Assembly (NCBI GenBank): GCA_963621145.1
Contig: CAVFDI010000001.1
Coordinates: 79,066 to 143,065, forward strand
Direction: 5' to 3'
Length of the DNA: 64,000 nt
From: Paludibacteraceae bacterium
GTDB taxonomy: Bacteria > Bacteroidota > Bacteroidia > Bacteroidales > Paludibacteraceae
The notes beneath the pieces are model-generated. The model saw only the letters and a list, made by a program, of their open reading frames with translations. It was not told the origin of the DNA and made no database searches. Shown here piece by piece: positions 29,782-64,000 of this stretch (within the stretch, counting starts at the first letter, position 1; each line of letters starts with the position of its first letter). Both the position numbers and the translations under genes were made by a program.

Positions 29782-29805
29782 TCTTTACTCCTTACTCCTT
29801 ACTCA
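29782..29805 (-). repeat. heptad tract (GGAGTAA)n overlapping the HD-gene stop
   Basis: The sense strand reads TAA GGAGTAA GGAGTAA AGACGG. Confidence 0.8.
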
Positions 29806-33042: not shown

Positions 33043-33050
33043 CACAAAAC

Positions 33051-33091: not shown

Positions 33092-33104
33092 GTCGATAAA
33101 ATCG

Positions 33105-33112
33105 TATCTTTG
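33105..33112 (+). promoter_or_regulatory. -7 box TATCTTTG
   Basis: Consensus box 16 nt upstream of ATG 33128. Confidence 0.5.
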
Positions 33113-33127
33113 CAACAATAAATATCC

Positions 33128-33628
33128 ATGCTCACGCCCTACACCTCCACCATCGACCAAGAGACGCTTCGCGAACGATACATCGCTGAGGCTGCTGAAT
33201 TTTATCGACAAAAGATGTAAAGCATTATTGGCGGCGATTCGAGTCGGCGGCTCGAACTGCGCGGCTACATTCCCGATGGCGTGGGTGGCACGCGCGTAGA
33301 ATTGCCCGCCACGCTGATGTACCGCATCGATACGCTGCATAGCAACGATGGCCATCGCCTGTACGAGTTTCTTATCGAGTGCGACATCGACACGCCAAGC
33401 ACTGGCATCTACTACGGCTGCCGCGGCGTAACAGTCGATGGTTTCGACCACACGCGCGAGATTGAGCAATATCGCAAGGATCGCGAAATCATTCTCCCCG
33501 AAATCTGCCAAATACTCAACAACACCTTTCCGCTGAAGGATTCCTCGCACCGATTCAAACTGACCGACAATGCGCAAGACGGCACTTATTGGCTGTCATG
33601 TAATGTTTGGGGATTGAGTAAGGAGTAA
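33128..33628 (+). pseudogene. hypothetical gene interrupted by an in-frame TAA (33218..33220); alternatively a shorter CDS from GTG 33281
   Basis: ATG 33128 gives MLTPYTSTIDQETLRERYIAEAAEFYRQKM*. The same frame continues SIIGGDSSRRLELRGYIPDGVGGTRVELPATLMYRIDTLH... to 33628. I checked the frame codon by codon. Confidence 0.4.
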
Positions 33629-33664
33629 AGAATAAGGATAAAGGACAAAAGACGGAGGACTGGG
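33616..33664 (+). repeat. heptad tract of seven GA-initiated 7-mers
   Basis: GAGTAAG GAGTAAA GAATAAG GATAAAG GACAAAA GACGGAG GACTGGG, with GA at 33616, 23, 30, 37, 44, 51 and 58. It spans the ORF stop at 33626..33628. Confidence 0.85.
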
Positions 33665-33707: not shown

Positions 33708-33756
33708 CAAAGCTCACCATCGTAATGGAAAGAAGTTTACTATCGTAGTGGAAACT
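33708..33756 (+). repeat. 49-bp direct repeat, copy 1
   Basis: caaagCtcaccatcgtaatggaaagaagtttactatcgtagtggaaact. Contains the internal half-sites ATCGTAATGGAAA and ATCGTAGTGGAAA, 23 nt apart. Confidence 0.9.
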
Positions 33757-35076: not shown

Positions 35077-35125
35077 CAAAGTTCACCATCGTAATGGAAA
35101 GAAGTTTACTATCGTAGTGGAAACT
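35077..35125 (+). repeat. 49-bp direct repeat, copy 2 (48/49 identical to copy 1)
   Basis: caaagTtcaccatcgtaatggaaagaagtttactatcgtagtggaaact. It lies 1,369 bp from copy 1. Confidence 0.9.
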
Positions 35126-36075: not shown

Positions 36076-36116
36076 AAGCGATGCCGCCCAAATGAGCAGC
36101 ATCGCTTCTGTTTTCG
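36076..36116. terminator. bidirectional hairpin between convergent genes
   Basis: aagcgatgc / gcatcgctt 9-bp stem followed by ctgtttt. Confidence 0.6.
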
Positions 36117-36130
36117 GAGAAATTTGCCGA

Positions 36131-37093
36131 TTAGATGTTCAGCAAATCAATCTCTTTCGATTCGTATATATTTTCTTCTTGAGTTTTGAAGTCGATGTAA
36201 GGTATTTGTACTTTGGCCTTGTTGTTACCCGTGAAGATAAGCGTAAACTTGAAATTTATTGGGTAAGACATTTTAACCAACTCAGCATATTCAAAATTTG
36301 GGAAGAACTCGTCGATGGCGCGTGTGTCGTCGACATAAATTTCGAGCGAACCACTGAGTGGGAAACGTGTGCCAACGTTCACAACCATTGGGTCGGCTTC
36401 TACAAAATCCACCTTGTAATCGTATTTGCCGGCAGTTTTACCCTCTTGGTCTCCCGTAATAGAATAGGTGTGTTTGGTAACATCTTTATTGCCTTCGCCT
36501 TCTATCCAAGTGCGAAAGGTCTGCTCAGAAAACTCAAACGATTTTTCGCCCGAAATCAGAGTAAATTTGCCATCGACTATAAACATGCAGTGGTTCAGGC
36601 TGTCGCGACCACCATTTTCGATATACATGGTGTCGTTGCACTCGAGTTTCACGTCGTCTACATACCAATCGGTAAAAGTGGCTGCCATTTTTGTGCCTTC
36701 GCTTTCGTAAGCGCCATCGGCCCAGACTTTCAGCACACCGCGGTGGTTGCGGCCATCTTTGCCAAGCACATTCTTGGTGCCATAGTCGATGGTTACAATT
36801 ACTGGGAAGTTGTAATCGTGGTCTACAAACTGCACATCAATTTTTGGGAATGTGTCGACTTCGGCAGCAGCAGGAGCAGCAGCAGGAGCAGCAGCCGTTT
36901 TTGTTTGTACCGTAGCCACACCATTGGCCGATTCGGTAACAGCGTTGGTAACCAAAGCCGAAGCAGTGAGATACTGCGTGAGAGCGGAACCTGTGGTAAG
37001 TTTGTCCTGAGTCTCAGTTTTTGGCTCATCTTTTTTGTTGCAGCCAACCAAAACTACGGCCAGTATTGCAACTGCATAAAGCATTTTTTTCAT
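36131..37093 (-). CDS. hypothetical lipoprotein with an Ala/Pro linker
   Basis: ORF trimmed to MKKMLYAVAILAVVLVGC (lipobox). Has a TAAAPAAAPAAAE linker. No family recognised. Confidence 0.6.
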   Translation of the reverse strand: MKKMLYAVAILAVVLVGCNKKDEPKTETQDKLTTGSALTQYLTASALVTNAVTESANGVATVQTKTAAAPAAAPAAAEVDTFPKIDVQFVDHDYNFPVIVTIDYGTKNVLGKDGRNHRGVLKVWADGAYESEGTKMAATFTDWYVDDVKLECNDTMYIENGGRDSLNHCMFIVDGKFTLISGEKSFEFSEQTFRTWIEGEGNKDVTKHTYSITGDQEGKTAGKYDYKVDFVEADPMVVNVGTRFPLSGSLEIYVDDTRAIDEFFPNFEYAELVKMSYPINFKFTLIFTGNNKAKVQIPYIDFKTQEENIYESKEIDLLNI

Positions 37094-37218
37094 TGTCGTA
37101 TGAATTTTAAAAATTATTTTATCCTCGAATTTCGTTGCAAAGTTACTCACTTAAGTGTAAATGAGCAAAATTATTTGTGTTAATTTTTCGTTGATGAATT
37201 TTTATGGCAAAAAATTCG

Positions 37219-38130: not shown

Positions 38131-38262
38131 GAATTTAGTTCGTAAAGTTTATGAAAAAGTGGGTTGATTAGTTGATCAGAAGTTGGAGTTGTTTGCCCAA
38201 TTCTAATTAGATAATTGGGTAATTAAATAATTGGATAATTATTCTGTCATGCTCTCCCCAAA

Positions 38263-38294
38263 ATTCTTAATTCTTAATTCAAAATTCATAATTA
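38263..38294 (-). repeat. heptad tract (GAATTNN)n abutting a stop codon
   Basis: The sense strand reads TAA TTAT GAATTTT GAATTAA GAATTAA GAATTTT GG. Confidence 0.85.
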
Positions 38295-38885
38295 CAATTG
38301 CCCTGCTTCTACCAAAAAGATGATGCGTTCGATGACTTTGTCTTCGCTGCTGTCGCCGAATTTCTTTTTCAGATCGGCACCGAGTAGTTTGGCGAACATC
38401 TGGTAAAATCCAGCCGAAAAACTGCCTCGATAGGCGCGTATGAGTTCGTACGAGCTTGTCTGGCACTCGCGGTCGACTAGCCGAATGAGCAATTTGCCCT
38501 GATTTAGAGTCATCTGCGTGAACTCTTTGTAGTATTTTTTGTAGGTCGACTTTTCCCATTGCCGCATGTAGCGGTCGCGTGCTTTCTTGTCGGGCAGGCG
38601 CATCAGCGTGTCGTTCACCTCTTGCACCAAGCCGCTAATCATCTTCGAATAGGGCAAAACTTTTTTCACGTCGCGCACGGTTCGCCAATAGAAACGTTCT
38701 TCGCGCTTGTTTTTGAACTTCATCGGCGGAAAAACATAGACCGTCGGCAGCTGAAACACCGTGTCGCCGTTGATTATGTGCATCGGCACCACATTGGCAG
38801 CCAAGGGTTGCGTGGCAGGCACTGTGGCGCTCGCCGAAACGGCAAAGATGCACGAAGTGGCTAATATGAGCGAAAGGCGTTTCAT
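38292..38885 (-). CDS. DUF4294-like secreted protein
   Basis: Signal peptide MKRLSLILATSCIFAVSASA. GKLLIRLVDRECQTSSYELIRAYRGSFSAGFYQ...EDKVIERIIFLVEAGQL resembles DUF4294 from memory. Confidence 0.65.
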   Translation of the reverse strand: MKRLSLILATSCIFAVSASATVPATQPLAANVVPMHIINGDTVFQLPTVYVFPPMKFKNKREERFYWRTVRDVKKVLPYSKMISGLVQEVNDTLMRLPDKKARDRYMRQWEKSTYKKYYKEFTQMTLNQGKLLIRLVDRECQTSSYELIRAYRGSFSAGFYQMFAKLLGADLKKKFGDSSEDKVIERIIFLVEAGQL

Positions 38886-39020: not shown

Positions 39021-39226
39021 AAAGAGCTTTTGGAGGCGCAAGGTGGCTTGTAACTGAAAAAACTCGAAAAAGATGCAGATTAGAAACGAAAATTCGCAAA
39101 GAGCAATCAAAACCGCAAAAGCATTTAGAAACTTACCAAAGAAAACAATAAAAGCGTAGAATTTTTAGAATCTACCTGTAGGTAGGTTGAACGCTACAAT
39201 TGTTTGAAAATCAAATTTCGTACCAA

Positions 39227-42453: not shown

Positions 42454-42488
42454 TTTTTCATTGCTCATTTTTCACTATTCATTTCAGG
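42454..42488 (+). repeat. heptad tract (NNNNTCA)n just upstream of the rnhB ATG
   Basis: TTTTTCA TTGCTCA TTTTTCA CTATTCA TTTCAGG. The TCA ends fall at 42460, 67, 74 and 81. Confidence 0.75.
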
Positions 42489-43929: not shown

Positions 43930-43959
43930 ATAAAAGCGTAGAATTTTTAGAACCTACCT
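43930..43959 (+). repeat. solo copy (29/30 identical) of the right end of the 38899..39177 element
   Basis: ataaaagcgtagaatttttagaaCctacct here versus ataaaagcgtagaatttttagaaTctacct at 39148..39177. Confidence 0.85.
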
Positions 43960-47424: not shown

Positions 47425-47486
47425 GTGAGAGCAAAGAGCATGGAACAAAGAGCATAGATTTTTTGGTACAAGATTTGCACCTCCTA

Positions 47487-47518
47487 ATTTGAAATTTGAA
47501 ATTTGAAATCTGAAATCT
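47487..47518 (+). repeat. heptad tract (GAAAT[TC]T)n upstream of the ompH ATG
   Basis: ATTTGAA ATTTGAA ATTTGAA ATCTGAA ATCT. It ends 8 nt before ATG 47527. Confidence 0.85.
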
Positions 47519-48735: not shown

Positions 48736-48768
48736 TTAACCTTTAACCTTAAACTTGAAACCTGAAAC
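48736..48768 (+). repeat. heptad-like tract TTAACCT TTAACCT TAAACTT GAAACCT GAAAC
   Basis: Ends 5 nt before ATG 48773. It shares CTTTAACCTT and AACCTGAAAC with 50089..50116. Confidence 0.75.
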
Positions 48769-48772
48769 ATTT

Positions 48773-49285: not shown

Positions 49286-50094
49286 AAATTGGTGTTTTCG
49301 ATAGTGGCTTTGGTGGACTGACAATTTTGGAGAAAATTCGTCGTCGCTTGCCGCAGTACGACTATATTTTTCTGGGCGACAATGCCCGCACGCCTTATGG
49401 TACGCGCTCGTTCGAGACGGTCTACGCCTACACGCTGCAGTGTGTCGAGAAACTTTTTGCCATGGATTGCCAAATGGTTATTTTGGCTTGCAACACGGCA
49501 TCGGCCGAGGCTTTGCGCACCATTCAGCAAAACGATTTGCCGCACATTGCGCCCGAGCGCAGAGTTTTGGGCGTCATTCGTCCGACCGTGGAGGCTGTGG
49601 GCGACCTTACGCAATCGCGCGTGGTGGGACTGCTTGCCACCGAAGCCACAGTGCGTTCGAATTCTTATCCGCTCGAAATTGCCAAACTTTTTCCCGATAT
49701 CGAAGTGGTGAGCCAAGCCTGTCCCATGTGGGTGCCGCTCATCGAAAATGGCGAACATACGAGCGCAGGAGCCGACTATTTTGTGCAGAAATATATCGAC
49801 AAACTGATGGCGCAAAACAGCCGCATCGATACGCTGATACTCGGCTGCACGCACTATCCGCTGATGATCGAAAAAATACGCCATTTTGCCCCGCAAGACG
49901 TGCGCATAGTGGTTCAAGGCGATATTGTGGCAGAGAGTCTGGCCGACTATTTGAAACGCCACCCAGAGCAGGAAATTCATTGCTCGAAAGGCGGTACAGT
50001 GCGCTATCTCACAACCGAATCGGCCGAAAAATTCCAATCGTCTGCCTCAATTTTTCTGAAAGAGAAAATTTTTGCCGAAAAAATCGAACTTTAA
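49282..50094 (+). CDS. murI: glutamate racemase
   Basis: IGVFDSGFGGLT, ACNTASAEAL and LGCTHYPLM catalytic-Cys motifs. Confidence 0.93.
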   Translation: MKIGVFDSGFGGLTILEKIRRRLPQYDYIFLGDNARTPYGTRSFETVYAYTLQCVEKLFAMDCQMVILACNTASAEALRTIQQNDLPHIAPERRVLGVIRPTVEAVGDLTQSRVVGLLATEATVRSNSYPLEIAKLFPDIEVVSQACPMWVPLIENGEHTSAGADYFVQKYIDKLMAQNSRIDTLILGCTHYPLMIEKIRHFAPQDVRIVVQGDIVAESLADYLKRHPEQEIHCSKGGTVRYLTTESAEKFQSSASIFLKEKIFAEKIEL

Positions 50095-50132
50095 CCTTCT
50101 ACTTTTAACCTGAAACTTGATACTTTTTTACT

Positions 50133-53866: not shown

Positions 53867-54208
53867 ATGCTACGCGGAACAACAACATTCGTCTGCGATG
53901 AGTGCGGCCACAAGTTCGAAGGCTTGGATATGGAGTGGAATGCCACTGCGGCTTCTACTCCGCAAAAATGCCCGAACTGTGGCAGCATGCATACCTCTCC
54001 GTCTGGATTGCTTGCATTGCTGAATAAAGGAATTTATCGCAAGATTTGGAAACATCTAGACGAAAGGAATGATAAGTTGCGCAGAAATCCGCTAAATCTC
54101 CGCTCTTGCACACAAAATGAAAAAATTTTTCTTTTTCGCTTGTGCATTCAAAAAAAATGCGTACCTTTGCAGCGCATTTGCGAGAGCAAGATTGGTGGAT
54201 TAGTCTAG
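53867..54208 (+). CDS. small zinc-ribbon protein (CxxC...CxxC) with a suspicious 3' extension
   Basis: MLRGTTTFVCDECGHKFEGLDMEW...QKCPNCGSMH. The ORF has no stop until 54206..54208, after crossing the tRNA-Glu promoter and the first 15 nt of the tRNA. Confidence 0.4.
   Translation: MLRGTTTFVCDECGHKFEGLDMEWNATAASTPQKCPNCGSMHTSPSGLLALLNKGIYRKIWKHLDERNDKLRRNPLNLRSCTQNEKIFLFRLCIQKKCVPLQRICESKIGGLV
54162..54169 (+). promoter_or_regulatory. -7 box TACCTTTG for tRNA-Glu
   Basis: Consensus box 24 nt upstream of tRNA position 1. Confidence 0.55.
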
Positions 54209-54266
54209 CGGTCTAGGACACCGGCCTCTCACGCCGGGAACACGGGTTCGAGTCCCGTATCCACTA
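54194..54266 (+). tRNA. tRNA-Glu (anticodon CTC)
   Basis: Hand-folded cloverleaf: acceptor ggtggat/atccact (G1-U72 wobble), D stem gtct/agac-like, anticodon stem ccggc/gccgg with loop ctCTCac, T arm acggg-ttcgagt-cccgt. 73 nt. Confidence 0.88.
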
Positions 54267-54272
54267 CAAATT

Positions 54273-54311
54273 TAGCCGATTTTCTGAAAAAGAAAATCGG
54301 CTATTTTTTTT
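54273..54311 (+). terminator. rho-independent terminator after tRNA-Glu
   Basis: Perfect 12-bp stem tagccgattttc / gaaaatcggcta followed by TTTTTTTT. Confidence 0.8.
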
Positions 54312-54340
54312 CGGAATATACGCCAAAACACCATTGTAGG

Positions 54341-54372
54341 AAAAAATAGGGACGTGCCATGGCGCGTCCCTA
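54341..54372 (-). terminator. terminator for dcp (minus strand)
   Basis: tagggacg / cgtcccta stem with a T-run on the minus strand (plus-strand aaaaaa at 54341..54346). Confidence 0.55.
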
Positions 54373-54418
54373 AAATGTAGTTATTCGGCTAGAAATCAGA
54401 ATTTTAACCGCACAGTCT

Positions 54419-54446
54419 TAATTCATAATTCATAATTCAAAATTTA
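54419..54446 (-). repeat. heptad tract (GAATTNN)n abutting the dcp stop
   Basis: The sense strand reads TAA ATTTT GAATTAT GAATTAT GAATTAA G. Confidence 0.85.
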
Positions 54447-56537
54447 CTTCAGTCCGCGTCCGCGCAGCATGGCGTCGGGGTTGGGCTGTGCGCCACGGAA
54501 ACGGGTGAAGAGCAGCATCGGGTCTTCGCTGCCACCTTTCTCCAAGCAGTTGGTGCGGAACGAGTGCGCTGTGGCTTCGTCGAAAATGCCGTTCTGGCGG
54601 AATAGCTCGAAGGCGTCCTTGTCCAACACTTCGGCCCAGAGGTAACTGTAGTAGCCAGCGCAGTAGCCGTTGTTGAACACATGATTGAAGTTGGTGGTGG
54701 TGTAGCGCGGCGCAATCTCAGGAATCAAGCCAATTTCGCCCATCACTACACGCTCGAATGTCTGCGAGTCGATGTCGTCGATCGATGTGAGCTCGTGCCA
54801 TTTCATGTCGAGAATGGCGGCGGCAGTGAGTTCGGTGGTGGCAAATCCTTGGTTGAATTTCGACGAACGATTTATCTTCTCGACCAGCGAATCGGGAATG
54901 ACCTCGCCAGTCTGATAGTGGTGCGCATACATGGCCAAGACTTCGGGTTGGAATGCCCAATTTTCGTTTATCTGGCTCATCATCTCCACAAAATCGCGCG
55001 GTACATTGGTTCCGCTCACGCTTGGGTAGTGGCATTGCGACAGCAGGCTGTGCAGTGCGTGTCCAAACTCGTGGAAGAGCGTTTCAACCTCGTCGATGGT
55101 GAGCAGCGAAGGCGTGTTGGCAGTGGGTTTTGTGAAATTGCCCACATTCACCACCACGGGGCGCACCATGTTGCCATCGATGTTTTGCTGACTGCGGAAA
55201 TCGTTCATCCAAGCGCCACCGCGTTTGCTTGCGCGAGGATAATAATCGGTGTAGAACAGTCCGATGAGCGAGCCATCGGCATCGGTCACTTTGAATGCCT
55301 CCACATCGGGGTGATAGATTGGCACCGAGTCGAGTTTTTCGAAATTCAAACCGTAGAGTTTGTGAGCGCAGGCAAAAGCACCTTCGCGCACACGTTCCAT
55401 TTGGAAATATGGCTTTATTTCGTCTTCGTTCAGCGCATATTTTTCGCGGCGAAGCAGTTCGGTGTAGTAGTCCCAATCCCATGCCTCGAGTTTGAAACCG
55501 CCGTGGTTGCGGTCGATGAGTGCTTGCAGTTCGGCGCGCTCGGCTTTGGCGCAGTTGTTGGCTGCCTCGAAAATCTCGCCGAGGAATTTATCCACTGCTT
55601 TGGCATTTTTCGCCATTGTCTCTTCCAAAATGAAGTCGGCTGGCGTGTCGAATCCGAGCAGTTGCGCTTTCTCGATGCGCAGACGCATGATGTTCAGCAC
55701 AATTTTGTTGTTGTCGTTCTCGTTGCCGTTGTTGCCGCGGTTGATGTAGGCTTTGTAGACCTGTTCGCGCAGGTCGCGGCGTTGGCTGTATTGCAGGAAC
55801 GGAATGCGGCTTGGAGCGTGCAGCGTAATCAGGTATTTGCCCTCGTGACCAGCTTCGGTAGCGGCTTCGGCGGCAGCGGTGCGCACAGCTTCGGGCAGAC
55901 CAGTAAGGTCGGTCTCGTCGAGCAGCAGTTGGAAGGCGTTGTTTTCGGCCAAGAGGTTTGTACCAAATTTCTGTTCGAGTGCCGAAAGTTGTTTGTTTAT
56001 TTCGCGCAGACGAGCCTGCGAGTCAGCGTCGAGAGCGATGCCATTGCGCACAAAATTGCGGTTCATATTCTCCAAAACGGTGGCTTGCTCGGGCGTGAGT
56101 TGCAGCGAGTCTTTTTGTGCATAAATGGTGGCCACGCGCTTGTAGAGGTCGGCATTCATAAAGATGTTGTCGCTGTTTTCGGAGATGAGCGGCAGTGCCT
56201 CTTCTACAATGGCATTCAGGTGGTCGTTGCCATCGGTTTCGACTATGTTGAATAGCACGCCAACCACGCGTGTGAGCAGGCTACCCGATTTCTCATAAGC
56301 CTCGATGGTGTTGGCAAAAGTTGGGGCGGCAGTGTCGGCCACGATGGCAGCAATTTCGGCCTGTTGTTGTGCAATTCCTTCGCGAATGGCAGGCAGATAA
56401 TCGTCCTCTTCTATCTGGTCGAATGGCGGCAAACCGTAGGGCGTGTCCCACTCGGCAATGAACGGATTTTTGTGATTGTCGCAAGCAGTAAGCATAAGCG
56501 TTGCAATTAGTGTTAAAGTGATTCCAAAGTGTTTCAT
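54444..56537 (-). CDS. dcp: M3-family peptidyl-dipeptidase (Dcp-like) lipoprotein
   Basis: HEFGHALH zinc motif, ~700 aa, lipoprotein signal MKHFGITLTLIATLMLTAC. Confidence 0.92.
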   Translation of the reverse strand: MKHFGITLTLIATLMLTACDNHKNPFIAEWDTPYGLPPFDQIEEDDYLPAIREGIAQQQAEIAAIVADTAAPTFANTIEAYEKSGSLLTRVVGVLFNIVETDGNDHLNAIVEEALPLISENSDNIFMNADLYKRVATIYAQKDSLQLTPEQATVLENMNRNFVRNGIALDADSQARLREINKQLSALEQKFGTNLLAENNAFQLLLDETDLTGLPEAVRTAAAEAATEAGHEGKYLITLHAPSRIPFLQYSQRRDLREQVYKAYINRGNNGNENDNNKIVLNIMRLRIEKAQLLGFDTPADFILEETMAKNAKAVDKFLGEIFEAANNCAKAERAELQALIDRNHGGFKLEAWDWDYYTELLRREKYALNEDEIKPYFQMERVREGAFACAHKLYGLNFEKLDSVPIYHPDVEAFKVTDADGSLIGLFYTDYYPRASKRGGAWMNDFRSQQNIDGNMVRPVVVNVGNFTKPTANTPSLLTIDEVETLFHEFGHALHSLLSQCHYPSVSGTNVPRDFVEMMSQINENWAFQPEVLAMYAHHYQTGEVIPDSLVEKINRSSKFNQGFATTELTAAAILDMKWHELTSIDDIDSQTFERVVMGEIGLIPEIAPRYTTTNFNHVFNNGYCAGYYSYLWAEVLDKDAFELFRQNGIFDEATAHSFRTNCLEKGGSEDPMLLFTRFRGAQPNPDAMLRGRGLK

Positions 56538-56693
56538 ATTTCAAATTGGGTTGATAAGTTGATTAGTTTAACGCATTGGTGTTGGTCTGTGAAATTTATT
56601 TCTAATTTCTGGTTTCTAGTTGTTGGTAGCCGAAGAGCCGTAATCTTCAAATAATTAAATAATTGGGAATTAGATAATTGGGTAATTAAGAAG

Positions 56694-56770
56694 TCTTTCG
56701 TCTTTACTCTTTTGTCTTTACTCTTTCGTCTTTATTCTTTATTCTATAACCTATAACTTCTCACCTATTC
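56694..56770 (-). repeat. heptad tract of 11 consecutive 7-nt units 3' of yidC
   Basis: Plus strand: TCTTTCG TCTTTAC TCTTTTG TCTTTAC TCTTTCG TCTTTAT TCTTTAT TCTATAA CCTATAA CTTCTCA CCTATTC. Confidence 0.85.
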
Positions 56771-56774
56771 AGAT

Positions 56775-58652
56775 TTAGCGTCGTTTCTGCTGTTGTTGCA
56801 TAGCTTTCATCTGTTCGCGCTGGGCGGCTTCGAGGCGTGCAAGGAAACCTTTCTTTTTCGATGGTTTGGCTTTCTTAGCTTCGAGTTTTGCAAGCAACTT
56901 TTTCTCGTCGATGCAGAGGCGGAAAATGTAGGTTTGCAGAATGGTGAACAGCAGCGAGATGAAATAGTAGTAGCTCAAGCCCGATGCATAATCGTTGAAG
57001 ATGAATAGGAACATGAGCGGCATCAGATACATCATCCATTTCATCATTTTCATCTGGTCGGCAGCGCCAGCTTGGCTCGACATGTTTATCTTGGTGTAGA
57101 CAATGTTGGTGATGGTCATCAGTAAGCAGAACAGACTGATGTGGTTGCCAAAATATGGCGTGATGAATGGAATGTAGGCGTCCCAACTAACTATGGCATC
57201 GTAACTCGAAAGGTCGTGCGCCCAAAGAAAACTCTGTTGGCGCAACTCGATAGCCGTTGGGAAGAAAGCGAACATGGCAAACAGAATTGGCATCTGCAGC
57301 AGCATTGGCAGGCAGCCGCTCATTGGACTGACGCCCACTTTGTTGTACAATGCCATGGTGGCTTGCTGGCGTTCTAGCGCTTTTTCGGGCGGATATTTGG
57401 CATTTATCTCGTCTATTTGCGGTTTCAGCACACGCATTTTGGCGGTCGACATGTACGATTTGTAGGTGAACGGCAGCAAAACCAATTTCACCACAATGGT
57501 CATCAGCAAAATGATGATGCCAAAATTGGCGATGTAGCGGTTCAGGAAGTTGAACAGCGGAATCACAAGCCATTCGCTCACCCAGCGGAAAATGGCCCAG
57601 CCCAATGGAATGATTTTTTCGAGGCGCAGACGGTTGTCGCTGTTCTCTATTTCGTCGTCGTAACTGCGCAAAATTTTGTACTGGTTCGGACCCATGTAGA
57701 GGCGGAAGTTGGTTGCTTTGTTGCCTTTGGGGTCGAACGCTACCGATGTTTCGGCTTTGTAGTGTTTCAGATAACCAACGCGCGCATTCTCCATTTTGCT
57801 GTCGAGCGTGGGCGAAATGAACGACTCGTCGGCAATGAAAATGGTGCTGAAGAATTGATCTTTGAAGGCAATCCACTGCACGCGTCCCGAGGTTTTCTCG
57901 CTGTCGTTTTTCGATTCGCTCATCTGCTCCACATCGTCGCCTGTGTAGCGATAGGTGAGGGTAGTGTAGCGGCTCTCGAACTTGCGGCTCTTCTCTTGCT
58001 GACGAATATCTTGTTCCCAAAGCATGTTCAGCGAGGTCATTTGCGGACTCAAATACGCCTGCATGTTGTGCGCCTCGATGTCGAAATGCAGCATATATTC
58101 GTTGCGTGGCAGCGTGTAGCGAAAATCGATGTAACTCTCGTCGTTCACCGCCAAACGCATGGCCAGCGTGGTGTCGTTCAGCACTACTGGCTTGAAAAAC
58201 AGATCTTGCGTATCGATTACACGGTTGTTGCTCGTCAGCAGTGTGAAACCTAGTCGGCTCTCGTCGCCCTGAAATAGATAGAGCGGCAACGAATCGGTGG
58301 TAACGTAGTTTTTGAGTCGTGCTTCGCTTATGCGTCCGCCTTTGTTGCTGATGGTGAGTTGCAGGCGATCGTTTTCGAGCGTGGTGAACTGCTCTTCGCC
58401 CTCGGCTGCAGCGGCAAAATCGCCATAAATGGCTGTGTTGCTACGCATTTCGGCCGCGGCTTTTTCGGCAGCTTCTTGCGCCATTTGTGCCTCGAGCATG
58501 GCGGCAGCGCGCTCGGCTTCGCGCACGGCAGCAATGGAGTCGCGACGGTGTTTGGCGGCGGCTTGTTGTTCCGCACTCGGACGAATGTACCAACTGTAGC
58601 CAATCAGAATCAGGCCAATAAGCACAAATCCAGTGATGGTTTTCTTATCCAT
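56775..58652 (-). CDS. yidC: membrane protein insertase YidC
   Basis: N-terminal TM segment, large periplasmic domain, and conserved C-terminal TM core (GCLPMLLQMPILFAMF...) with a basic tail. Confidence 0.93.
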   Translation of the reverse strand: MDKKTITGFVLIGLILIGYSWYIRPSAEQQAAAKHRRDSIAAVREAERAAAMLEAQMAQEAAEKAAAEMRSNTAIYGDFAAAAEGEEQFTTLENDRLQLTISNKGGRISEARLKNYVTTDSLPLYLFQGDESRLGFTLLTSNNRVIDTQDLFFKPVVLNDTTLAMRLAVNDESYIDFRYTLPRNEYMLHFDIEAHNMQAYLSPQMTSLNMLWEQDIRQQEKSRKFESRYTTLTYRYTGDDVEQMSESKNDSEKTSGRVQWIAFKDQFFSTIFIADESFISPTLDSKMENARVGYLKHYKAETSVAFDPKGNKATNFRLYMGPNQYKILRSYDDEIENSDNRLRLEKIIPLGWAIFRWVSEWLVIPLFNFLNRYIANFGIIILLMTIVVKLVLLPFTYKSYMSTAKMRVLKPQIDEINAKYPPEKALERQQATMALYNKVGVSPMSGCLPMLLQMPILFAMFAFFPTAIELRQQSFLWAHDLSSYDAIVSWDAYIPFITPYFGNHISLFCLLMTITNIVYTKINMSSQAGAADQMKMMKWMMYLMPLMFLFIFNDYASGLSYYYFISLLFTILQTYIFRLCIDEKKLLAKLEAKKAKPSKKKGFLARLEAAQREQMKAMQQQQKRR

Positions 58653-58705
58653 AATGAAGGTTTTTATCGATTTTTAGGAAAAATAATGCGCCATTTTTTG
58701 GACTG

Positions 58706-58713
58706 CAAAGTTA
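58706..58713 (-). promoter_or_regulatory. -7 box (TAACTTTG on minus strand) for yidC
   Basis: Plus-strand caaagtta, 54 nt upstream of ATG 58652. Confidence 0.5.
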
Positions 58714-58772
58714 CGATTTTTTTCTGGCGATTGCAAGGGCGAATAATGGGTGTTTGCTCGCCCAATTAAAAC

Positions 58773-58802
58773 AAAAAAAGAGCGACATTTTGCGTGCCGC
58801 TC
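58773..58802 (-). terminator. terminator after xseB (minus strand)
   Basis: gagcggc / gtcgctc stem (one mismatch) followed by TTTTTTT on the minus strand. Confidence 0.5.
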
Positions 58803-58840
58803 CGTTTGTCTATGGTGAATTTATTTCACAAAAAACGCCG

Positions 58841-59029
58841 TTACAGATTTTCGAGCAGTTTTTCTATGGCTTTGTCGGTCTCTTGAAGACGTTTTTTGCA
58901 GATTTTTACCAGTTCGGTGGCCTCTTTCACCTTGGTCGAAAGGTCGTCGAGACTGAGTGTGCCAGCCTCTATCTGCTGAACTATCTGTTCGAGACGCTCA
59001 GCCGCCTGCGTGTAAGTTAGTTGTTCCAT
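58841..59029 (-). CDS. xseB: exodeoxyribonuclease VII small subunit
   Basis: MEQLTYTQAAERLEQIVQQIEAGTLSLDDL...C.KRL, 62 aa helical hairpin. Confidence 0.85.
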   Translation of the reverse strand: MEQLTYTQAAERLEQIVQQIEAGTLSLDDLSTKVKEATELVKICKKRLQETDKAIEKLLENL

Positions 59030-59042
59030 ATTTCTTAAAAGT

Positions 59043-59071
59043 TTCAGATTTCAGATTTCAAATTTCAGATT
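59043..59071 (-). repeat. heptad tract (GAAAT[CT]T)n upstream of the xseB ATG
   Basis: The sense strand reads AATCTGA AATTTGA AATCTGA AATCTGA AAC. It ends ~12 nt before ATG 59029 and belongs to the same word family as 47487..47518. Confidence 0.85.
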
Positions 59072-59280
59072 AGTAGCAAGTAGCAAGATATGAGTCGCAA
59101 GAAAAAGTCGATGCAGTTGAACAATAAATTCTTTTTAATTTCCTAATTCTTCTAAACTCTAACTTCTCACCTATTTGGTTTTGCACTCGCTTATCGCAAA
59201 AATTCAAATTTCAAATTGGCTGTAGTCAGTTTATCGAATCGTACACAAAAAATGTAATTAAGTAATTGGAAATTAAAAAA

Positions 59281-60525
59281 TTAGACAATTTTTGATTTGA
59301 TTGTTCCGTCTGCAAAGTGCGTTTCGATGGTTTCGCCAGCTTTTAGTTCGGTGACCGATTTCACTATTTTGCCGTTTTTCGTTGTCAGTGTGTAGCCGCG
59401 ATTGAGCAGTGTCTTTGGATCAGAAAGTTCGAGCGATTTTTCGATCAGCGATAGGGCATTTTTTGCCGATGAAATGGCGTTTTTTGCCGATTTGTCCAGT
59501 CTGAAAACAATGGTCGAAAGCACATTTTCTTGACGCAAAATTTGCTGTCGTGCGTTGCCCAATCGCGACACGCAGTGTTGCAGCGTCTGCTCATTTTCAT
59601 TCATTATTTCGCCAACAAGTTCGCTCAACTGATTGGCTGCATTTTCGATGCGTTCGTCGTATTGGCGCATGCAATCAATCAAAAATTCGGCTGCAGCGGT
59701 GGGCGTTTTCACGCGTGTGTGAGCCACAAGGTCCACAATGCTGTCGTCGCGCTGGTGACCAATGCCGCTGATTATCGGCAACGGAAATTGTGCGCAGTGC
59801 AACGCTATGTTGTAGTTGTCGAACGCTGCAAGGTCGCTCGTGGCACCGCCTCCGCGAATTATCGCCACGGCATCGAACAGCTCGATGTGGTCGTTTATCT
59901 GGTCGAGAGCCGCTATCACCGATTGTTCGGTGCGGTCGCCTTGCATGGTGGCGGCAAACAGTTTCACATAGAAATGGTAGCCGAAGCGATTGCCTTGCAG
60001 TTGGTCGCAAAAATCGCCAAAACCCGCTGCTGTGGCCGACGAAATCACAGCAATGCGTTGCGGCACAATCGGCATCTCGAGTTCTTTGTTCATATCCACC
60101 ACGCCCTCGTCGGTCAGTCGGTGGATAATCTCGGCGCGACGCATGGCCATGTCGCCAATGGTGAATGCAGGGTCGATGTCGCTAACCTCGAGGCTCAAAC
60201 CATAGACCGAATGGAACGAAGGCTCTACGGCTAGCAGCACTTTCATGCCCACAGCCAATGCCATTCCTGTCGATTCTTCGAAATAGGGCTTCAGCAAATT
60301 GTAGGTATTTTTCCAGATGGTGGCTTTCTGCTTTGCCACTACGGTATCGTTTTCGGGCGATTTTTCAATCAGTTCCAAATAGCAGTGACCGTTGCGATTT
60401 TCGTGCAGTTCGCTAATCTCGGCACGCACCCACACAACGTCCAAAAACGCCGATTTAATCGACATTTTTAGCACCTCGTTCAACTCCGAAAGCGCCAAAG
60501 AATTTATGTGAGCATTTTCGTTCAT
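59281..60525 (-). CDS. xseA: exodeoxyribonuclease VII large subunit
   Basis: ORF trimmed to MNENAHINSLALSELNEVLK (ATG 60525). Has the OB-fold region VWVRAEISELHENRNGHCYLELIEK and the catalytic region IIRGGGATSDLAAFD. Confidence 0.9.
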   Translation of the reverse strand: MNENAHINSLALSELNEVLKMSIKSAFLDVVWVRAEISELHENRNGHCYLELIEKSPENDTVVAKQKATIWKNTYNLLKPYFEESTGMALAVGMKVLLAVEPSFHSVYGLSLEVSDIDPAFTIGDMAMRRAEIIHRLTDEGVVDMNKELEMPIVPQRIAVISSATAAGFGDFCDQLQGNRFGYHFYVKLFAATMQGDRTEQSVIAALDQINDHIELFDAVAIIRGGGATSDLAAFDNYNIALHCAQFPLPIISGIGHQRDDSIVDLVAHTRVKTPTAAAEFLIDCMRQYDERIENAANQLSELVGEIMNENEQTLQHCVSRLGNARQQILRQENVLSTIVFRLDKSAKNAISSAKNALSLIEKSLELSDPKTLLNRGYTLTTKNGKIVKSVTELKAGETIETHFADGTIKSKIV

Positions 60526-60528
60526 GAA

Positions 60529-60563
60529 CTTCTCACTTTTCACTCCTAATTCCTCACTAATCA
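60529..60563 (-). repeat. heptad tract spanning the mnmA stop and the xseA leader
   Basis: Plus strand: CTTCTCA CTTTTCA CTCCTAA TTCCTCA CTAATCA. Sense strand: GATTAGT GAGGAAT TAGGAGT GAAAAGT GAGAAGT. Confidence 0.8.
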
Positions 60564-61630
60564 ATGATTCCTCCGCCCACAACTTTTCCGTCCTGATAAA
60601 GCACTAGCGATTGTCCTGGCGTGATGCCCCAAACGGGTTCGTCGAAATGCAAAGTGCAGTGGTTTCCATCAATTTCGATGGTGGCTGGCGTGGCGGCAGT
60701 TTTGTAGCGTATACGAGCCAAAACCCGCGGATTCATCGAGAGTTTTTTGGCATCAACAAACCTACAATTCGACGCCGAAAGTGTGTTGCTCAGCAAGTCG
60801 TCGCGGTCGCCAAGGGTTACGCGATTGTTCTCGGCATCAATTTTCGTAACATATTTCGGAGTTCCAAAAGCCACTTTTAGCCCTTTTCGCTGACCGATGG
60901 TGTAGTTCGGGAAACCTTCGTGCGTGCCAACCACCATGCCATTTTTGTCGATGAAATCGCCATTTTTGCACCTCTCGGCAAAGTCGGGAACCTGTTCGGC
61001 AAGGAATGTGCGATAGTCGTTGTTTGGCACAAAACAGATCTCTTGGCTCTCGGTTTTTTGCGATAGTTTCACAAATCCGCGCTCGGCTGCCATCTGGCGC
61101 ACTTGCTGCTTGGTGTAGCCGCCCAAAGGGAAAATGGTTCGTGCCAAATTCTGCTCGGTCAGCATCCACAGAAAATAGGTCTGATCTTTGTGCGCATCGG
61201 CGGCGTTGGCAAGGTAGTGATGCCCGTCGCACTGAACAATCTGCGCATAATGTCCCGTAGCGATTTTTTCGCAGCCCATCTCGTCGGCCAAATCGAGCAA
61301 TTTGCCCCATTTAATCGACGAATTGCAAAGCACGCATGGGTTTGGTGTGCGACCACGCATATATTCGTCCACAAAATTGCCGATGACATGCTCACGGAAT
61401 GTGTCGCGCAAGTCGAGAATGTGATGCTCGAAGCCGAGCGTTTGCGCCATTTTTTTGGCTTCCATTATCGAGTCGATGCTGCAACAGCCCTTTTCGCGTG
61501 CAAGGCAACTTTCGCGAATGCTGTCGAACGTACGAAATGTGACGCCCACCAGTTCGTATCCTTGCTCGCGCAACAGCATAGCCGATACCGTGCTGTCGAT
61601 GCCGCCGCTCATGGCCATTAATATCTTCAT
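60557..61630 (-). CDS. mnmA: tRNA 2-thiouridine(34) synthase
   Basis: ORF trimmed to MKILMAMSGGIDSTV (PP-loop SGGxDS). Also NPCVLCN and KDQTYFL. Confidence 0.93.
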   Translation of the reverse strand: MKILMAMSGGIDSTVSAMLLREQGYELVGVTFRTFDSIRESCLAREKGCCSIDSIMEAKKMAQTLGFEHHILDLRDTFREHVIGNFVDEYMRGRTPNPCVLCNSSIKWGKLLDLADEMGCEKIATGHYAQIVQCDGHHYLANAADAHKDQTYFLWMLTEQNLARTIFPLGGYTKQQVRQMAAERGFVKLSQKTESQEICFVPNNDYRTFLAEQVPDFAERCKNGDFIDKNGMVVGTHEGFPNYTIGQRKGLKVAFGTPKYVTKIDAENNRVTLGDRDDLLSNTLSASNCRFVDAKKLSMNPRVLARIRYKTAATPATIEIDGNHCTLHFDEPVWGITPGQSLVLYQDGKVVGGGIID

Positions 61631-61731
61631 AAGTTGAAAAGTTGACGAGTTGAAAAGCCTGTTTTCTGATTTGTAAGAACGCACTGCATGCGTCCGTGTT
61701 CGTTTTGCAGTTTGCTGTGGTTGCGCCCTAT

Positions 61732-61765
61732 TTCTTAATTCATAATTCTAAATTCTTAATTATCA
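61732..61765 (-). repeat. heptad tract (GAATTNN)n abutting a stop codon
   Basis: The sense strand reads TGA TAATTAA GAATTTA GAATTAT GAATTAA GAAA. Confidence 0.85.
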
Positions 61766-64000
61766 GAGTCCCAGTTCTATGCGAAACCTCATTCCCCACT
61801 TGATGGCGTCGGGCGCATCGCGGTAGGTGAGTCGCCAAATGGATTGCACCGAAAGAATGCGCAAAATGTTGCAAATGCCCACACCAGCCTCTATGTAGGG
61901 CATTTTCTTCATGTTTGTGGCGGTTTCGGGCAGCGCCAAAATGCCACTGTGACCCGAACGCAACCCGCCGTAGGCTATTTTGAACACAAAATCTTCGCGC
62001 AGATTCAGTTTTTTGATGCCTGGAATGTAGTTGAACAGCCAACCGCTGGTCACGTAGCGCATATTGCCCATCACATAGGCGTCGGTCATGAATTCCATGG
62101 GCGAGAGCAGACCAAAATCGTACTGCGACCAGAAATTTCGCGCCGTGCGTGGCACTTCGAGCAGCGGCCATGGCACATCGCCAAAAATGTAGCCGCCTTC
62201 AACGCCGTAACTCAATCGACCCGACCACAACGGCACATCTTGTTTCAGCGTGAGGCGCAACTGACCATAATGATTCGTGGCGTCGCCCACAGCGTAGTAG
62301 CCGTATTCGCCCATCAGACTGACAATCGGGTATTTTGTGCGCAAATGCTGACGATGAAAAAATCGTTCGAGCGTGCGCTCGTCGTGGGCAAAACGCAGCG
62401 TGGCAGCCACCGATGTGGTTTTCACATGCTGCAAATTTACATCATTTTGCACAAATGTCATCGCATCGTTGGCAAAAAAATCGACTCCGCGCCAATCGAG
62501 CGTAAAAGTCCAATCTTTTTCGTGAAAACGATAGCGTGCCGCCAGCCGATGGGCTTGACACAGATTTTTGTAATGCACCACATGCGAAGCGGTAGTCAGC
62601 AGGTTTTCGGGACTGCCGTACATGTTTTCGTTCAACATCTCGGCACTGCGATAGCCGTAGCGAATCACATCGTTATCGTAAAAAATACCGATGGAATGGG
62701 CGTTTTCGTTGCCCCAGCGTGCCTGAATTTCGCCACCGTATTTCCACTGCTTGTCGCGCACGCCATAGCCAAAATATCCGCCAATGGCGAAATGCTCCAT
62801 CATTTTTTCGCCAGTGCGCAGTTGCAATGTGGGCCGAAATCCCTCCAATTCGTTGTAGCGAAACCAGTTGATTATCGGCCCCAAATCGAATTTCCACGCG
62901 TGAATGTAGCCGGTGAGCGCAAAATCGACTATGTTGTAGGCAATGCGTTGCAGTTTGCTCTGGTTCAGACTGTCGATGGCGGCGCGAAATTCCTGATTTT
63001 CAGCGGCTGCCGAATCGCGAATTTCCTCGATGAAATCGGGCTTTTTTTCATTTTCTGCATCGATGGTGGTAACTTCGTTTTCTATTGTTTGTAGATAGAA
63101 TGCCGACAAGCCATGTTGCGCGTTTTTGTCGAACAAATTGAACGAAAACGACATGGCATATTCGCGCGAATTGTAATAAAATCGTCCATCTTTACCGCGC
63201 TCGAAAATCTGTTCTATGGTCAGACCGTTCAGAAAATTGATGGCTGCGTAGGGCGACAGCGATGCTTTGATGTGCGTGAGTGCCAACGTGGCCGAATCAA
63301 TCCACATCTCGCCGCGGAATGCTAACTCTTTGTCATTTTTCGGGCGAAAACGAATGTAGTAAGTCTTGCCGTCGGGCGTGGCGGTGCTATCTATCAAAAA
63401 ATATTGGTAGTAGATGTTGCCTTGCACGCTGAGTGGACTGATGAAATTGGTTTGCAGCAACGTCACATTGTTGCGATAGAAATTGACATGCGGTGTGTAG
63501 TTGGCCACAAAAGTGCCGATTTGTTCGGGCGGAAGCACCTGCAACGCTTTCTGGTCGAGCAGCAGATTTGTGCGCTGAATGTCGCCACTGTTTGCCTCTA
63601 TTTTGTCCGATTGTTGCGCATAATAAATCGGCACAAACATCGTACTGTCGTCGAGCGCGAGTTGCCCCGACATGGCATCGCCAAGCAGGCGTCGCTGCGT
63701 CTTTTTGCGGCGAATGTTCGCCATGCTCAACTGTATGTTTTGATGCTCTATGGCACTGAAATCGGCGAAACGCTCGGGATCGTTTTGTGCGGCGGCGGTT
63801 CGCACGCGTTTGAGCAATGGTAGCGCCTCATTTTCGCCTGGCATAGCCACAACCTCGCTCAGCATGTTGCGTTCTTCGCGTAGTGCGATGTTCAGCACTT
63901 GGTCGCTGCCAGTCAGTTTCACCTCTTTGCGGCGGTAGCCCAGCACCGAAATGCAGAGCGTTTTGTATGGCTCGTTTGTGCGCAAAATAAAGTAGCCCTC
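61763..64000 (-). CDS. CarboxypepD_reg-like plus DUF5686-like large protein; N-terminus beyond the right edge
   Basis: The frame stays open to position 64000 (EGYFILRTNEPYKTLCISVLGYRRKEVKL is the end of a carboxypeptidase-regulatory-like fold). The C-terminal ~650 aa are barrel-like and end ...RFRIELGL. Family assigned from memory. Confidence 0.7.
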   Translation of the reverse strand, partial: EGYFILRTNEPYKTLCISVLGYRRKEVKLTGSDQVLNIALREERNMLSEVVAMPGENEALPLLKRVRTAAAQNDPERFADFSAIEHQNIQLSMANIRRKKTQRRLLGDAMSGQLALDDSTMFVPIYYAQQSDKIEANSGDIQRTNLLLDQKALQVLPPEQIGTFVANYTPHVNFYRNNVTLLQTNFISPLSVQGNIYYQYFLIDSTATPDGKTYYIRFRPKNDKELAFRGEMWIDSATLALTHIKASLSPYAAINFLNGLTIEQIFERGKDGRFYYNSREYAMSFSFNLFDKNAQHGLSAFYLQTIENEVTTIDAENEKKPDFIEEIRDSAAAENQEFRAAIDSLNQSKLQRIAYNIVDFALTGYIHAWKFDLGPIINWFRYNELEGFRPTLQLRTGEKMMEHFAIGGYFGYGVRDKQWKYGGEIQARWGNENAHSIGIFYDNDVIRYGYRSAEMLNENMYGSPENLLTTASHVVHYKNLCQAHRLAARYRFHEKDWTFTLDWRGVDFFANDAMTFVQNDVNLQHVKTTSVAATLRFAHDERTLERFFHRQHLRTKYPIVSLMGEYGYYAVGDATNHYGQLRLTLKQDVPLWSGRLSYGVEGGYIFGDVPWPLLEVPRTARNFWSQYDFGLLSPMEFMTDAYVMGNMRYVTSGWLFNYIPGIKKLNLREDFVFKIAYGGLRSGHSGILALPETATNMKKMPYIEAGVGICNILRILSVQSIWRLTYRDAPDAIKWGMRFRIELGL

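Follow-up and report, generated by a model that had tools for sequence, protein, structure and literature searches.

Length-variable heptanucleotide tandem arrays in the intergenic spacers of an uncultured Paludibacteraceae lineage

Why should the short spacers between housekeeping genes of a bacterium be filled with DNA that repeats at an exact period of 7 nucleotides (nt)? The question is raised by a 64,000-nt stretch (hereafter, the window) of contig CAVFDI010000001.1 from a Paludibacteraceae bacterium (assembly GCA_963621145.1), and above all by the spacer between yidC and pepM3. An earlier reading of the letters alone (the sequence-only reading) had pointed out these tracts and offered either RNA-level elements or slippage-generated filler as their explanation. 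We followed them up with a gene map of the window (public gene calls on identical contigs, Pfam and open reading frames (ORFs)), near-identical strains, related loci (given below by L numbers) and viral and metagenome collections. The arrays are probably variable-number tandem repeats (VNTRs) driven by slippage, of the kind described as long simple sequence repeats (LSSRs) or short tandemly repeated repetitive sequences (STRRs), that have proliferated in the spacers of one genus-level Paludibacteraceae lineage.

The minus strand directly 3' of yidC reads TAA ATCT and then 11 contiguous heptads, the first lying 4 nt past the stop codon: GAATAGG TGAGAAG TTATAGG TTATAGA ATAAAGA ATAAAGA CGAAAGA GTAAAGA CAAAAGA GTAAAGA CGAAAGA (56694-56770). 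The last seven have the form NNAAAGA, with an invariant AAAGA core and a 14-nt superperiod. Direct reading confirms the run of 11 that had been claimed, and Tandem Repeats Finder scores the tract at period 7 (7.7 copies) and period 14 (3.4 copies with 90% matches). The yidC-to-pepM3 spacer as a whole is 279 nt long and mostly repetitive, a CTAATCAA-type octad array also lying within it, and contains the following features:

56694..56770, minus strand: array of 11 heptads of the class that the sequence-only reading called class 1, beginning 4 nt past the yidC stop; polymorphic in copy number.
56649..56689, minus strand: array of 8-/16-nt units, AATTGGGTAATTAAAT type; this word is found again at 38204-38241 and 59255-59280.
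56598..56627, minus strand: heptad array CTAGAAA CCAGAAA TTAGAAA.
56550..56592, minus strand: dispersed leader module, made up of GACCAACACCAATGCGTTAAAC and an array of (TNATCAAC)n octads, 5' of the pepM3 start; L055 and L106 have copies in front of other genes.

This spacer cannot be aligned between the window, L001 and L002, yet heptad arrays make up each of the three versions.

The periodicity is well beyond chance. Measured against 500 dinucleotide-preserving shuffles, the self-identity of the window's spacers had z-scores of 4.88, 3.36 and 5.38 at lags 7, 14 and 21, with lower values at neighbouring lags. All seven period-7 tracts found in a stringent scan lie mostly in spacers (5 kb), with none mainly inside the 59 kb of coding sequence; such restriction to non-coding DNA is expected of a unit length that is not a multiple of 3. 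A tolerant scan (33 spacers, 4505 bp, 200 dinucleotide shuffles) identified 12 period-7 tracts covering 375 bp, compared with 0.16 expected and a shuffle maximum of 2, which amounts to ~8% of spacer bases and ~12 arrays per 4.5 kb of spacer. Period 8 gave two tracts versus 0.2 expected, and periods 4-6 and 9-12 were at background. Chance or an assembly artefact may therefore be treated as already refuted, with a probability close to nil: the shuffled controls exclude chance, and the same arrays are present in five further NCBI assemblies, one Logan assembly, sister species and metagenomes. What can be said for an artefact is that the L085 assembly has an N-gap exactly at the 48736-48768 array, indicating that the repeats trouble assemblers.

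The strongest evidence on the origin of the arrays comes from seven near-identical strains (the window and L081-L086), which have identical YidC proteins, 193 single-nucleotide polymorphism columns over 21.9 kb and <1% divergence. Their alignment contains 11 indel blocks: five of 7 or 14 nt in heptad arrays (at about 56751-56757, 56713, 54432-54438, 48756-48769 and 47503-47509), one of 8 nt in an octad array immediately beyond the window and five of 1 nt. All six multi-base indels are therefore whole 7-, 14- or 8-nt units within arrays, and none was found outside arrays among the seven strains. In the yidC tract itself, the alleles are a 7-nt indel at 56751-56757 and an additional 14 nt at ~56713; the 14-nt superperiod of the tract matches these +14-nt alleles, carried by L083 and L086. 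Whole-unit change marks tandem repeats that undergo strand slippage or unequal exchange, and its occurrence between strains <1% apart identifies the arrays as slippage-type VNTRs. Hypervariability between near-identical strains is what the sequence-only reading had named as the mark of neutral slippage, and the free variation observed here favours its option of slippage-generated filler.

Comparison with more distant relatives extends this picture from alleles to whole arrays. The YidC protein assigns the window to an uncultured member of Paludibacteraceae (Bacteroidales); YidC amino acid identity to the window is 98% for L001 and L002 and 86-87% for L003, L004, L005 and L055, and heptad arrays fill the spacers in all members of this genus-level group (≥86% identity). 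Relative to L002 (~91% nucleotide identity in genes), the promoter region 5' of yidC, the terminator hairpins and a tRNA are well conserved, and the arrays at 47486, 48736 and 61729 occupy the same positions with changed copy numbers or words; others have been replaced, or lie within insertions of ~80-180 bp that combine arrays with small hairpins. This turnover is that of slippage-prone tandem repeats with rapid birth and death. No period-7 tracts were found in the clades with 74-75% (L006, L007 and L021) or 61-66% (L008-L010) YidC identity, and in the three 74-75% loci an ordinary hairpin and T-run terminator is the next element downstream of yidC. The median co-directional spacer measures 102-153 nt in the window and L002 compared with 24-36 nt in L007, L009 and L010, where it is 3-5 times shorter. 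Among 72 loci of at least 10 kb (the window and 71 YidC loci), the median share of non-coding DNA is 11.4% in 24 array-rich loci and 7.9% in 33 array-free loci (P = 0.014). Larger spacers and more non-coding DNA in array-bearing loci indicate that the arrays are added DNA.

Elsewhere in Bacteroidales the trait is patchy among the YidC loci. Short tandem arrays with other unit lengths in place of 7 nt were seen in some of them (period 11 in L013, L015, L027, L032 and L037; period 8 in L041, L062 and L066), and the preferred unit length appears, judging from these loci, to be lineage-specific. Seven of the contigs used (L002-L005, L013, L014 and L055) are clearly placed by YidC and synteny in Paludibacteraceae or other Bacteroidales and come from bins named Flexilinea, Leyella stercorea, Erysipelotrichaceae, Acutalibacteraceae, Segatella copri and Firmicutes, names that appear to be misassigned.

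Beyond the yidC spacer, the window contains the following arrays:

29782..29805, minus strand: GAGTAAG GAGTAAG GAGTAAA GA array; the stop of an HD-domain gene (GAG TAA) lies inside the first unit, and the 3' end is AAAGACGG.
33616..33664, plus strand: seven heptads, each GA-initial (class 1), in the divergent spacer 5' of an AAA_14 gene; the 3' end is AAAGACGG.
38262..38293, minus strand: (AATTNNG)n array overlapping the stop codon of gene 38292-38885.
42454..42488, plus strand: array of 7-/14-nt units, pyrimidine-rich on the sense strand (the minority orientation), ending 3 nt before the RNase HII start.
47428..47458, plus strand: (AGAGCAA)n array beginning 3 nt past the bamA stop.
47486..47518, plus strand: (AATYTGA)n array ending 8 nt before an ompH start; strains differ by 0, 7 or 14 nt.
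48736..48768, plus strand: (AACYTGA/TTAACCT)n array ending 4 nt before the third ompH start; 14-nt strain polymorphism.
50090..50125, plus strand: heptads over the entire 38-nt murI-to-rnt spacer; the murI stop lies within the first unit.
54416..54444, minus strand: (GAATTAW)n array overlapping the pepM3 stop; strains differ by 0, 7 or 14 nt.
59042..59071, minus strand: (AATYTGA)n array ending 12 nt before the xseB start.
59072..59087, plus strand: (AGTAGCA)n array, antisense to the flanking genes; its word heads a composite module in sister species.
59137..59217, minus strand: two arrays, GTGAGAA GTTAGAG TTTAGAA ... and AATTTGA x 2.7, on either side of the dispersed 22-nt segment TGCACTCGCTTATCGCAAAAAT.
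60529..60556, minus strand: TGAGGAA TTAGGAG TGAAAAG TGAGAAG, filling the 31-nt mnmA-to-xseA spacer.
61631..61657, minus strand: octad array, TTCAACTT type, upstream of the mnmA start.
61729..61761, minus strand: (AATTWWG)n array beginning 1 nt past the DUF5686 stop; kept in place in the sister species L002.

Arrays of 8-nt units (AATTGGGT/AATTAAAT, TTCAACTT and CTAATCAA) are found beside the heptads at 38204-38241, 56649-56689, 59255-59280, 61631-61657 and 56550-56568. The tracts that the sequence-only reading had listed at 33616-33664, 29782-29805, 42454-42488, 48736-48768, 50089-50125 and 60529-60563 are all present; its tract at 26537-26549 is there too, as a weak one of only ~2 units. It had also placed the beginning of the 33616 tract in the last codons of an ORF, a placement that does not hold: ORF 33281-33628 (plus strand) is absent from the public gene calls, by which the tract lies between divergent genes, 5' of the AAA_14 gene at 33815. 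Several other observations concern the gene map. A single 7223-amino-acid ORF at 2824-24495 takes up a third of the window, and ORF 36092-37183 (plus strand) is absent from the gene calls, the gene called there being on the minus strand. At ~33498, a 1-nt indel separates the window from L087, which is near-identical elsewhere; the indel falls in the called ORF 32981-33570 (minus strand; a 196-amino-acid hypothetical protein), an ORF that overlaps a tRNA-Thr on the opposite strand and is doubtful or a pseudogene.

Slippage accounts for changing length; the placement of the arrays relative to genes carries further information. We examined orientation in 28 arrays between co-directional genes within the genus. 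The sense strand is purine-rich in 22 of the 28, G also exceeds C in 22, and stop codons in all three frames are present in 14 arrays on the sense strand compared with 2 on the antisense strand. Sense-strand composition is 43% A and 11.5% C in the arrays versus 34% A and 18% C in other co-directional spacer DNA. The suggestion that the words are mostly GA-initiated on the sense strand of the adjacent gene survives as this purine bias and fails as a rule. Since array orientation tracks gene direction across several strand switches within 35 kb, it is tied to transcription, and replication-strand bias is ruled out as its cause.

Distances to gene ends were assessed in 16 arrays. Eight begin at most 4 nt from a stop codon, compared with 2.2 expected (P < 5e-5), and several include the stop, in agreement with the proposal that the tracts lie right after stop codons. 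Six end at most 12 nt from a start codon, compared with 3.5 expected (P = 0.05), and two short spacers (murI-rnt and mnmA-xseA) are wholly filled by heptads. Word classes also differ in position: (AATYTGA)n is found ahead of starts (ompH, xseB and, in four species, pepM3), and (GAATTAW)n and (NNAAAGA)n follow stop codons.

These regularities could point to a role in mRNA. The arrays might be functional RNA-level cis-elements of polycistronic transcripts, in a bacterium that does not rely on Shine-Dalgarno (SD) sequences: unstructured, A-rich and C-poor trailers or leaders for ribosome loading or re-initiation, for exclusion of Rho, or as a multivalent platform with a 7-nt footprint for an S1-, cold-shock protein (Csp)- or RNA-recognition motif (RRM)-type protein. 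The sense bias, the depletion of C on the sense strand, the proximity to stop and start codons and the position-specific word classes all agree with such a role. So does translation in Bacteroidia, where initiation is tuned by mRNA structure and upstream nucleotides instead of SD pairing (PMC6847099, PMC7797042), as well as MacGregor's proposal that S1, Csp or CsrA binds TAACTGA arrays (PMC4679880). Predicted structure is likewise absent: the sense RNAs of 15 arrays have minimum free energies of 0 to -1.7 kcal/mol (mean z = 0.08, like their shuffles), and the complete yidC spacer folds less stably than its shuffled versions (z = +2.1). However, shuffles of the same composition are equally unstructured, copy number is free to vary between near-identical strains beside housekeeping genes, the words in orthologous spacers differ between sister species, arrays are missing from close relatives and ~20% of arrays are oppositely oriented. 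The many different words also make a single sequence-specific binder unlikely. On balance we regard these cis-elements as distinctly unlikely.

More specific RNA or DNA identities were rejected. A structured RNA or known RNA family is ruled out, as folding resembles that of shuffles, no significant inverted repeats were found in the array-bearing spacers, the arrays have no dyad symmetry, and Rfam returned only two tRNAs from the window at gathering threshold and no credible match over 54200-61800 at E ≤ 1, with no hit to an array in either search. The arrays are not clustered regularly interspaced short palindromic repeats (CRISPR), as their 7-nt units are contiguous with no spacers between them, whereas CRISPR repeats measure 20-50 nt and alternate with unique spacers of about that size, and coding potential and CsrA-type sites were rejected on anatomy; the scans and the inverted-repeat search agree with the earlier statement that the tracts are neither coding, CRISPR nor palindromic. 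An RNA of the type bound by the trp RNA-binding attenuation protein (TRAP) has 9-11 NAG triplets spaced 2-3 nt apart and a cognate ring protein. This (G/U)AG-repeat type is ruled out by the exact 7-nt period, which sets GA cores 4-5 nt apart, unlike TRAP sites.

A different set of observations concerns sequence shared between spacers. A composite module, (GTAGCAAG)n - AGATTTTRAGAA - (NATAGAN)3, follows the stops of different genes in L004, L005 (twice), L055 and L106 (twice), with a partial copy lacking the GTAGCAAG array in L002; in L005 and L055 it runs on into a GTAGGGACG...CGTCCCTA hairpin. A leader module of GACCAACRCCAAYGCGYTAAAC and (TNATCAAC)n precedes four different genes, one of them the window's pepM3. 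The 22-nt unique segment TGCACTCGCTTATCGCAAAAAT is common to the xseA-xseB spacer of the window and the yidC spacer of L002, and the 3' boundary AAAGACGG is common to class-1 arrays at four loci. Modules with non-repetitive linkers at unrelated loci indicate that slippage alone is insufficient and that some copying between spacers has taken place. Within the window, a restricted vocabulary was only marginal (5 of 36 word pairs within one mismatch versus 1.7 expected, P = 0.056). Palindromic sequence is confined to separate hairpins, one of them at the end of the pepM3 trailer:

54345..54372, minus strand: hairpin GGGACGCGCCATGGCACGTCCC with a T-run, a terminator-like end of the pepM3 trailer; the same hairpin closes array modules of the sister species.

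The sequence (T/G)TAGGGACGYGCCATGGCRCGTCCCTA plus T-run at this site resembles a terminator for pepM3 and recurs at other loci of the sister species. REP (repetitive extragenic palindromic)-like hairpins that start with GTAG and end with CTAC occur at 39148-39177, 43930-43959 and 54345-54372, the first two being copies of one hairpin, GCGTAGAATTTTTAGAAYCTACCT. Separately, a 49-nt element, CAAAGYTCACCATCGTAATGGAAAGAAGTTTACTATCGTAGTGGAAACT, is present at 33708-33756 and 35077-35125 with 98% identity between copies, 59 and 15 nt upstream of the AAA_14 and glutamyl-tRNA synthetase (GluRS)-like genes; it consists of two 23-nt direct repeats, each with CCATCGTAATGG-like dyads, and is probably a shared, putative regulator-binding site.

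The shared modules raise the alternative that the arrays are parts of small dispersed mosaic elements, similar to bacterial interspersed mosaic elements (BIMEs) and REPs or to miniature inverted-repeat transposable elements (MITEs), copied by a dedicated mobility system with slippage being secondary. The composite after stops of different genes, the leader module 5' of four genes, the TGCACTCGCTTATCGCAAAAAT segment in two unrelated spacers, the AAAGACGG boundary at four class-1 loci and the array-plus-hairpin insertions of ~80-180 bp that separate L002 from the window are what this would predict, and REPs, like the hairpins here, begin with GTAG. The likeness to BIMEs and REPs also extends to dispersed, modular elements in transcribed spacers and 3' trailers. 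The building blocks differ, being palindromic units in BIMEs and REPs and direct heptad arrays in the window, where only the separate GTAGGGACG...CGTCCCTA hairpins are palindromic; membership in BIME/REP is not claimed. Against mobile elements, we saw neither terminal inverted repeats nor target-site duplications nor a transposase gene, and no gene of the REP-associated tyrosine transposase (RAYT) type was seen in the window. Many arrays are solitary with differing words, word sharing in the window is marginal, and the pattern could equally come from ectopic conversion between arrays with a common word. Mosaic elements are an unlikely explanation.

Length variation next to genes also calls contingency loci to mind, in which copy-number change would switch expression of the adjacent gene (phase variation). 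Copy number is indeed polymorphic in both 5' and 3' untranslated spacers, and effects of repeat number in 5' untranslated regions are known from Moraxella, as summarised in PMC4679880. Contingency-locus simple sequence repeats and the window arrays both gain and lose units by slippage. The former have units of 1-5 nt within ORFs or promoter spacers of surface, restriction-modification or virulence genes, however, whereas the latter have 7-nt units between housekeeping genes (yidC, pepM3, xseA/B, mnmA, bamA, ompH, murI and rnt), outside ORFs and recognisable TAnnTTTG promoter cores and mostly 3' of stops. Phase variation is accordingly very improbable.

The sequence-only reading knew of no description of such DNA, but intergenic heptanucleotide tandem repeats have been published (PMC2670836, PMC4679880, PMC4692102). 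Heptanucleotide repeats are reported to be the most abundant class of long simple sequence repeats in many prokaryotes, and a suggested origin is slippage linked to the stretch of DNA that the polymerase contacts (Mrazek 2007, as summarised in PMC4679880 and PMC4692102). From what those reports relate, LSSRs and the window arrays have in common an intergenic excess, a sporadic phylogeny, attribution to slippage and variation between close relatives. The window arrays differ in their high density, many A/T-rich words per genome, sense bias, stop abutment and Paludibacteraceae host. Cyanobacterial STRRs are 7-bp intergenic or intercistronic repeats of unknown function, for which a role in transcript stability or translational coupling has been proposed (PMC2670836). 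Both these and the window arrays are 7-bp tandem repeats in spacers; hosts and words differ, and STRRs often form hairpins, while the window arrays do not. The STRR heptamers include CCCCAGT, TTGGTCA and CAACAGT, none of which has a tandem copy in the window. With at least three tandem 7-nt units, an excess over expectation, a non-coding location, whole-unit change and a sporadic distribution, the window arrays have every feature by which LSSR/STRR-type repeats are recognised. To our knowledge, neither the function of heptanucleotide arrays nor the preference for 7 nt has been explained since the cyanobacterial STRRs.

Another published counterpart is the TAACTGA family, found in intergenic arrays of Beggiatoaceae, Cyanobacteria and five Bacteroidetes including Paludibacter propionicigenes (MacGregor 2015, PMC4679880). 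Its arrays are mostly forward, with stops in all frames, no predicted structure and strain indels in 7-nt steps, and other heptamer arrays were noted in Bacteroidetes spacers (PMC4679880). The window arrays are likewise intergenic, close to start or stop codons, without predicted structure and subject to strain indels in 7-nt steps. Forward orientation also prevails among the 28 arrays of the genus, with stops in all frames in 14 of them on the sense strand, and six of 16 arrays end at most 12 nt from a start codon, more of them following stops. The TAACTGA family has one dominant word, whereas the window has multiple words, TAACTGA itself being present as three single copies with no tandem; in addition, the window arrays mostly follow stop codons, and the TAACTGA arrays of the BOGUAY genome precede start codons. 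GGGAATC and GGGGAYT arrays of Xanthomonas and Nostoc also vary between close relatives (Rehm 2015, PMC4692102), but are G-rich and prone to G-quadruplexes, unlike the A/T-rich window arrays, which have no G-runs. None of the published words is present as a tandem in the window. A literature search for further papers on heptamer tandem repeats in Bacteroides spacers found none. The published arrays show that the kind is already known, and the present one is a dense, multi-word case in an uncultured Paludibacteraceae genus.

How far the individual words extend beyond this genus was assessed in viral and metagenome collections. In the viral collection, the (AATYTGA)n or TGAAAT-type word was found at 42 loci and two permuted control words at 41 and 48; as the controls are equally frequent, the word is not special globally, and a universal special heptad is ruled out; heptad arrays thus exist with many words. 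Arrays of TAACTGA are comparatively frequent in that collection (67 loci, no degeneracy allowed), in agreement with PMC4679880. The search pattern for the A-rich class 1 was too permissive to inform. One contig filed as viral, L106 (IMG/VR 3300001528_000829, GC content 0.52), has the heptad vocabulary of the genus, the stop-proximal module twice and the leader module, and by its sequence would be either a phage or prophage of the lineage or a misfiled chromosomal fragment. Another, IMG/VR 3300029268_000020 (L105, L109, L119, L123 and L128), is 57.6 kb long with a GC content of ~0.64 and is packed with ATTTCAG, AAGGACA, ATTGTAG and AATGGAG arrays.

The metagenome scan with GAGTAAGGAGTAAAGA (GTAAAGA type) returned heterogeneous matches, many by chance or coding, from lineages with GC contents of 0.38-0.65, and shows that arrays of this word, as well as inverted array pairs, are present in many lineages. 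Across the heptad-rich contigs, 52 tracts lie in 24 kb of non-coding DNA and 6 in 123 kb of coding DNA. By hand count, ~8 of 17 purine-rich arrays abut a stop codon compared with 2 of 10 pyrimidine-rich arrays; an orientation bias was not significant in this mixed set (17 versus 11, P = 0.34). Inverted pairs of GTAAAGA-type arrays (array, loop, reverse-complement array) were seen in L415, L419, L436, L440, L447, L449 and L466, directly after stop codons in the two with gene calls (L440 and L447), and are predicted to form long hairpins built from heptads.

The abutment of stops by purine-rich arrays in unrelated lineages, as counted by hand, keeps alive a stronger form of the mRNA-level idea. 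The arrays would then be positioned, functional parts of polycistronic mRNAs in Bacteroidales that lack SD sequences, with purine-rich (NNAAAGA / GAATTAW)n at stops and (AATYTGA)n before starts, read in a 7-nt register by an oligomerising protein that binds single-stranded RNA or used as Rho-excluding landing pads for ribosomes, and the modules would be spread by an unknown copying mechanism. We consider this conjunction quite improbable.

We therefore return to slippage-driven proliferation as the favoured explanation and to what it would involve. New arrays may begin as small duplications that expand, diverge by point mutation and disappear, and this cycle of birth, drift and loss would leave orthologous spacers of sister species with different words. 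Selection would act mainly as a filter, with arrays in transcribed spacers persisting up to the nearest stop codon, start-codon region, promoter or terminator. The favoured orientation would be the one that yields A-rich, C-poor, unstructured RNA with stops in three frames; such RNA would neither extend nor start a protein and may be harmless, or mildly favourable, for SD-independent initiation in Bacteroidia. For the spread of composite modules, ectopic conversion between arrays with a word in common would be the simplest route and is the probable one, a dedicated mobility mechanism being the alternative. No sequence-specific function of the heptads is required under slippage, and we infer from the sequence comparisons that the arrays may be neutral.

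Four points weigh against this explanation. First, stop codons are abutted too often (8 of 16 arrays versus 2.2 expected, and ~8 of 17 purine-rich arrays in the metagenome lineages), and mutation plus a filter can account for this only in an indirect way, by a deletion bias that reaches to functional boundaries. Second, word classes hold preferred positions at several non-orthologous loci. Third, composite modules with non-repetitive linkers are found in at least five unrelated spacers, and slippage cannot create them. Lastly, the unit is 7 nt here and 8 or 11 nt in some related lineages, a difference without explanation.

For the biology of this lineage, the arrays provide a dense natural system in which copy-number alleles can be followed beside housekeeping genes in many near-identical strains from gut metagenomes, with birth and death of arrays visible between sister species and closest relatives that have none. 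Two regularities, the start of arrays at stop codons and their preference for one strand relative to transcription, go beyond a purely neutral model, and the composite modules common to unrelated spacers are a further addition of the lineage. The arrays break assemblies (one N-gap) and make spacers 3-5 times as long as in the closest relatives free of arrays, and they could serve as high-resolution VNTR strain markers for uncultured Bacteroidales.

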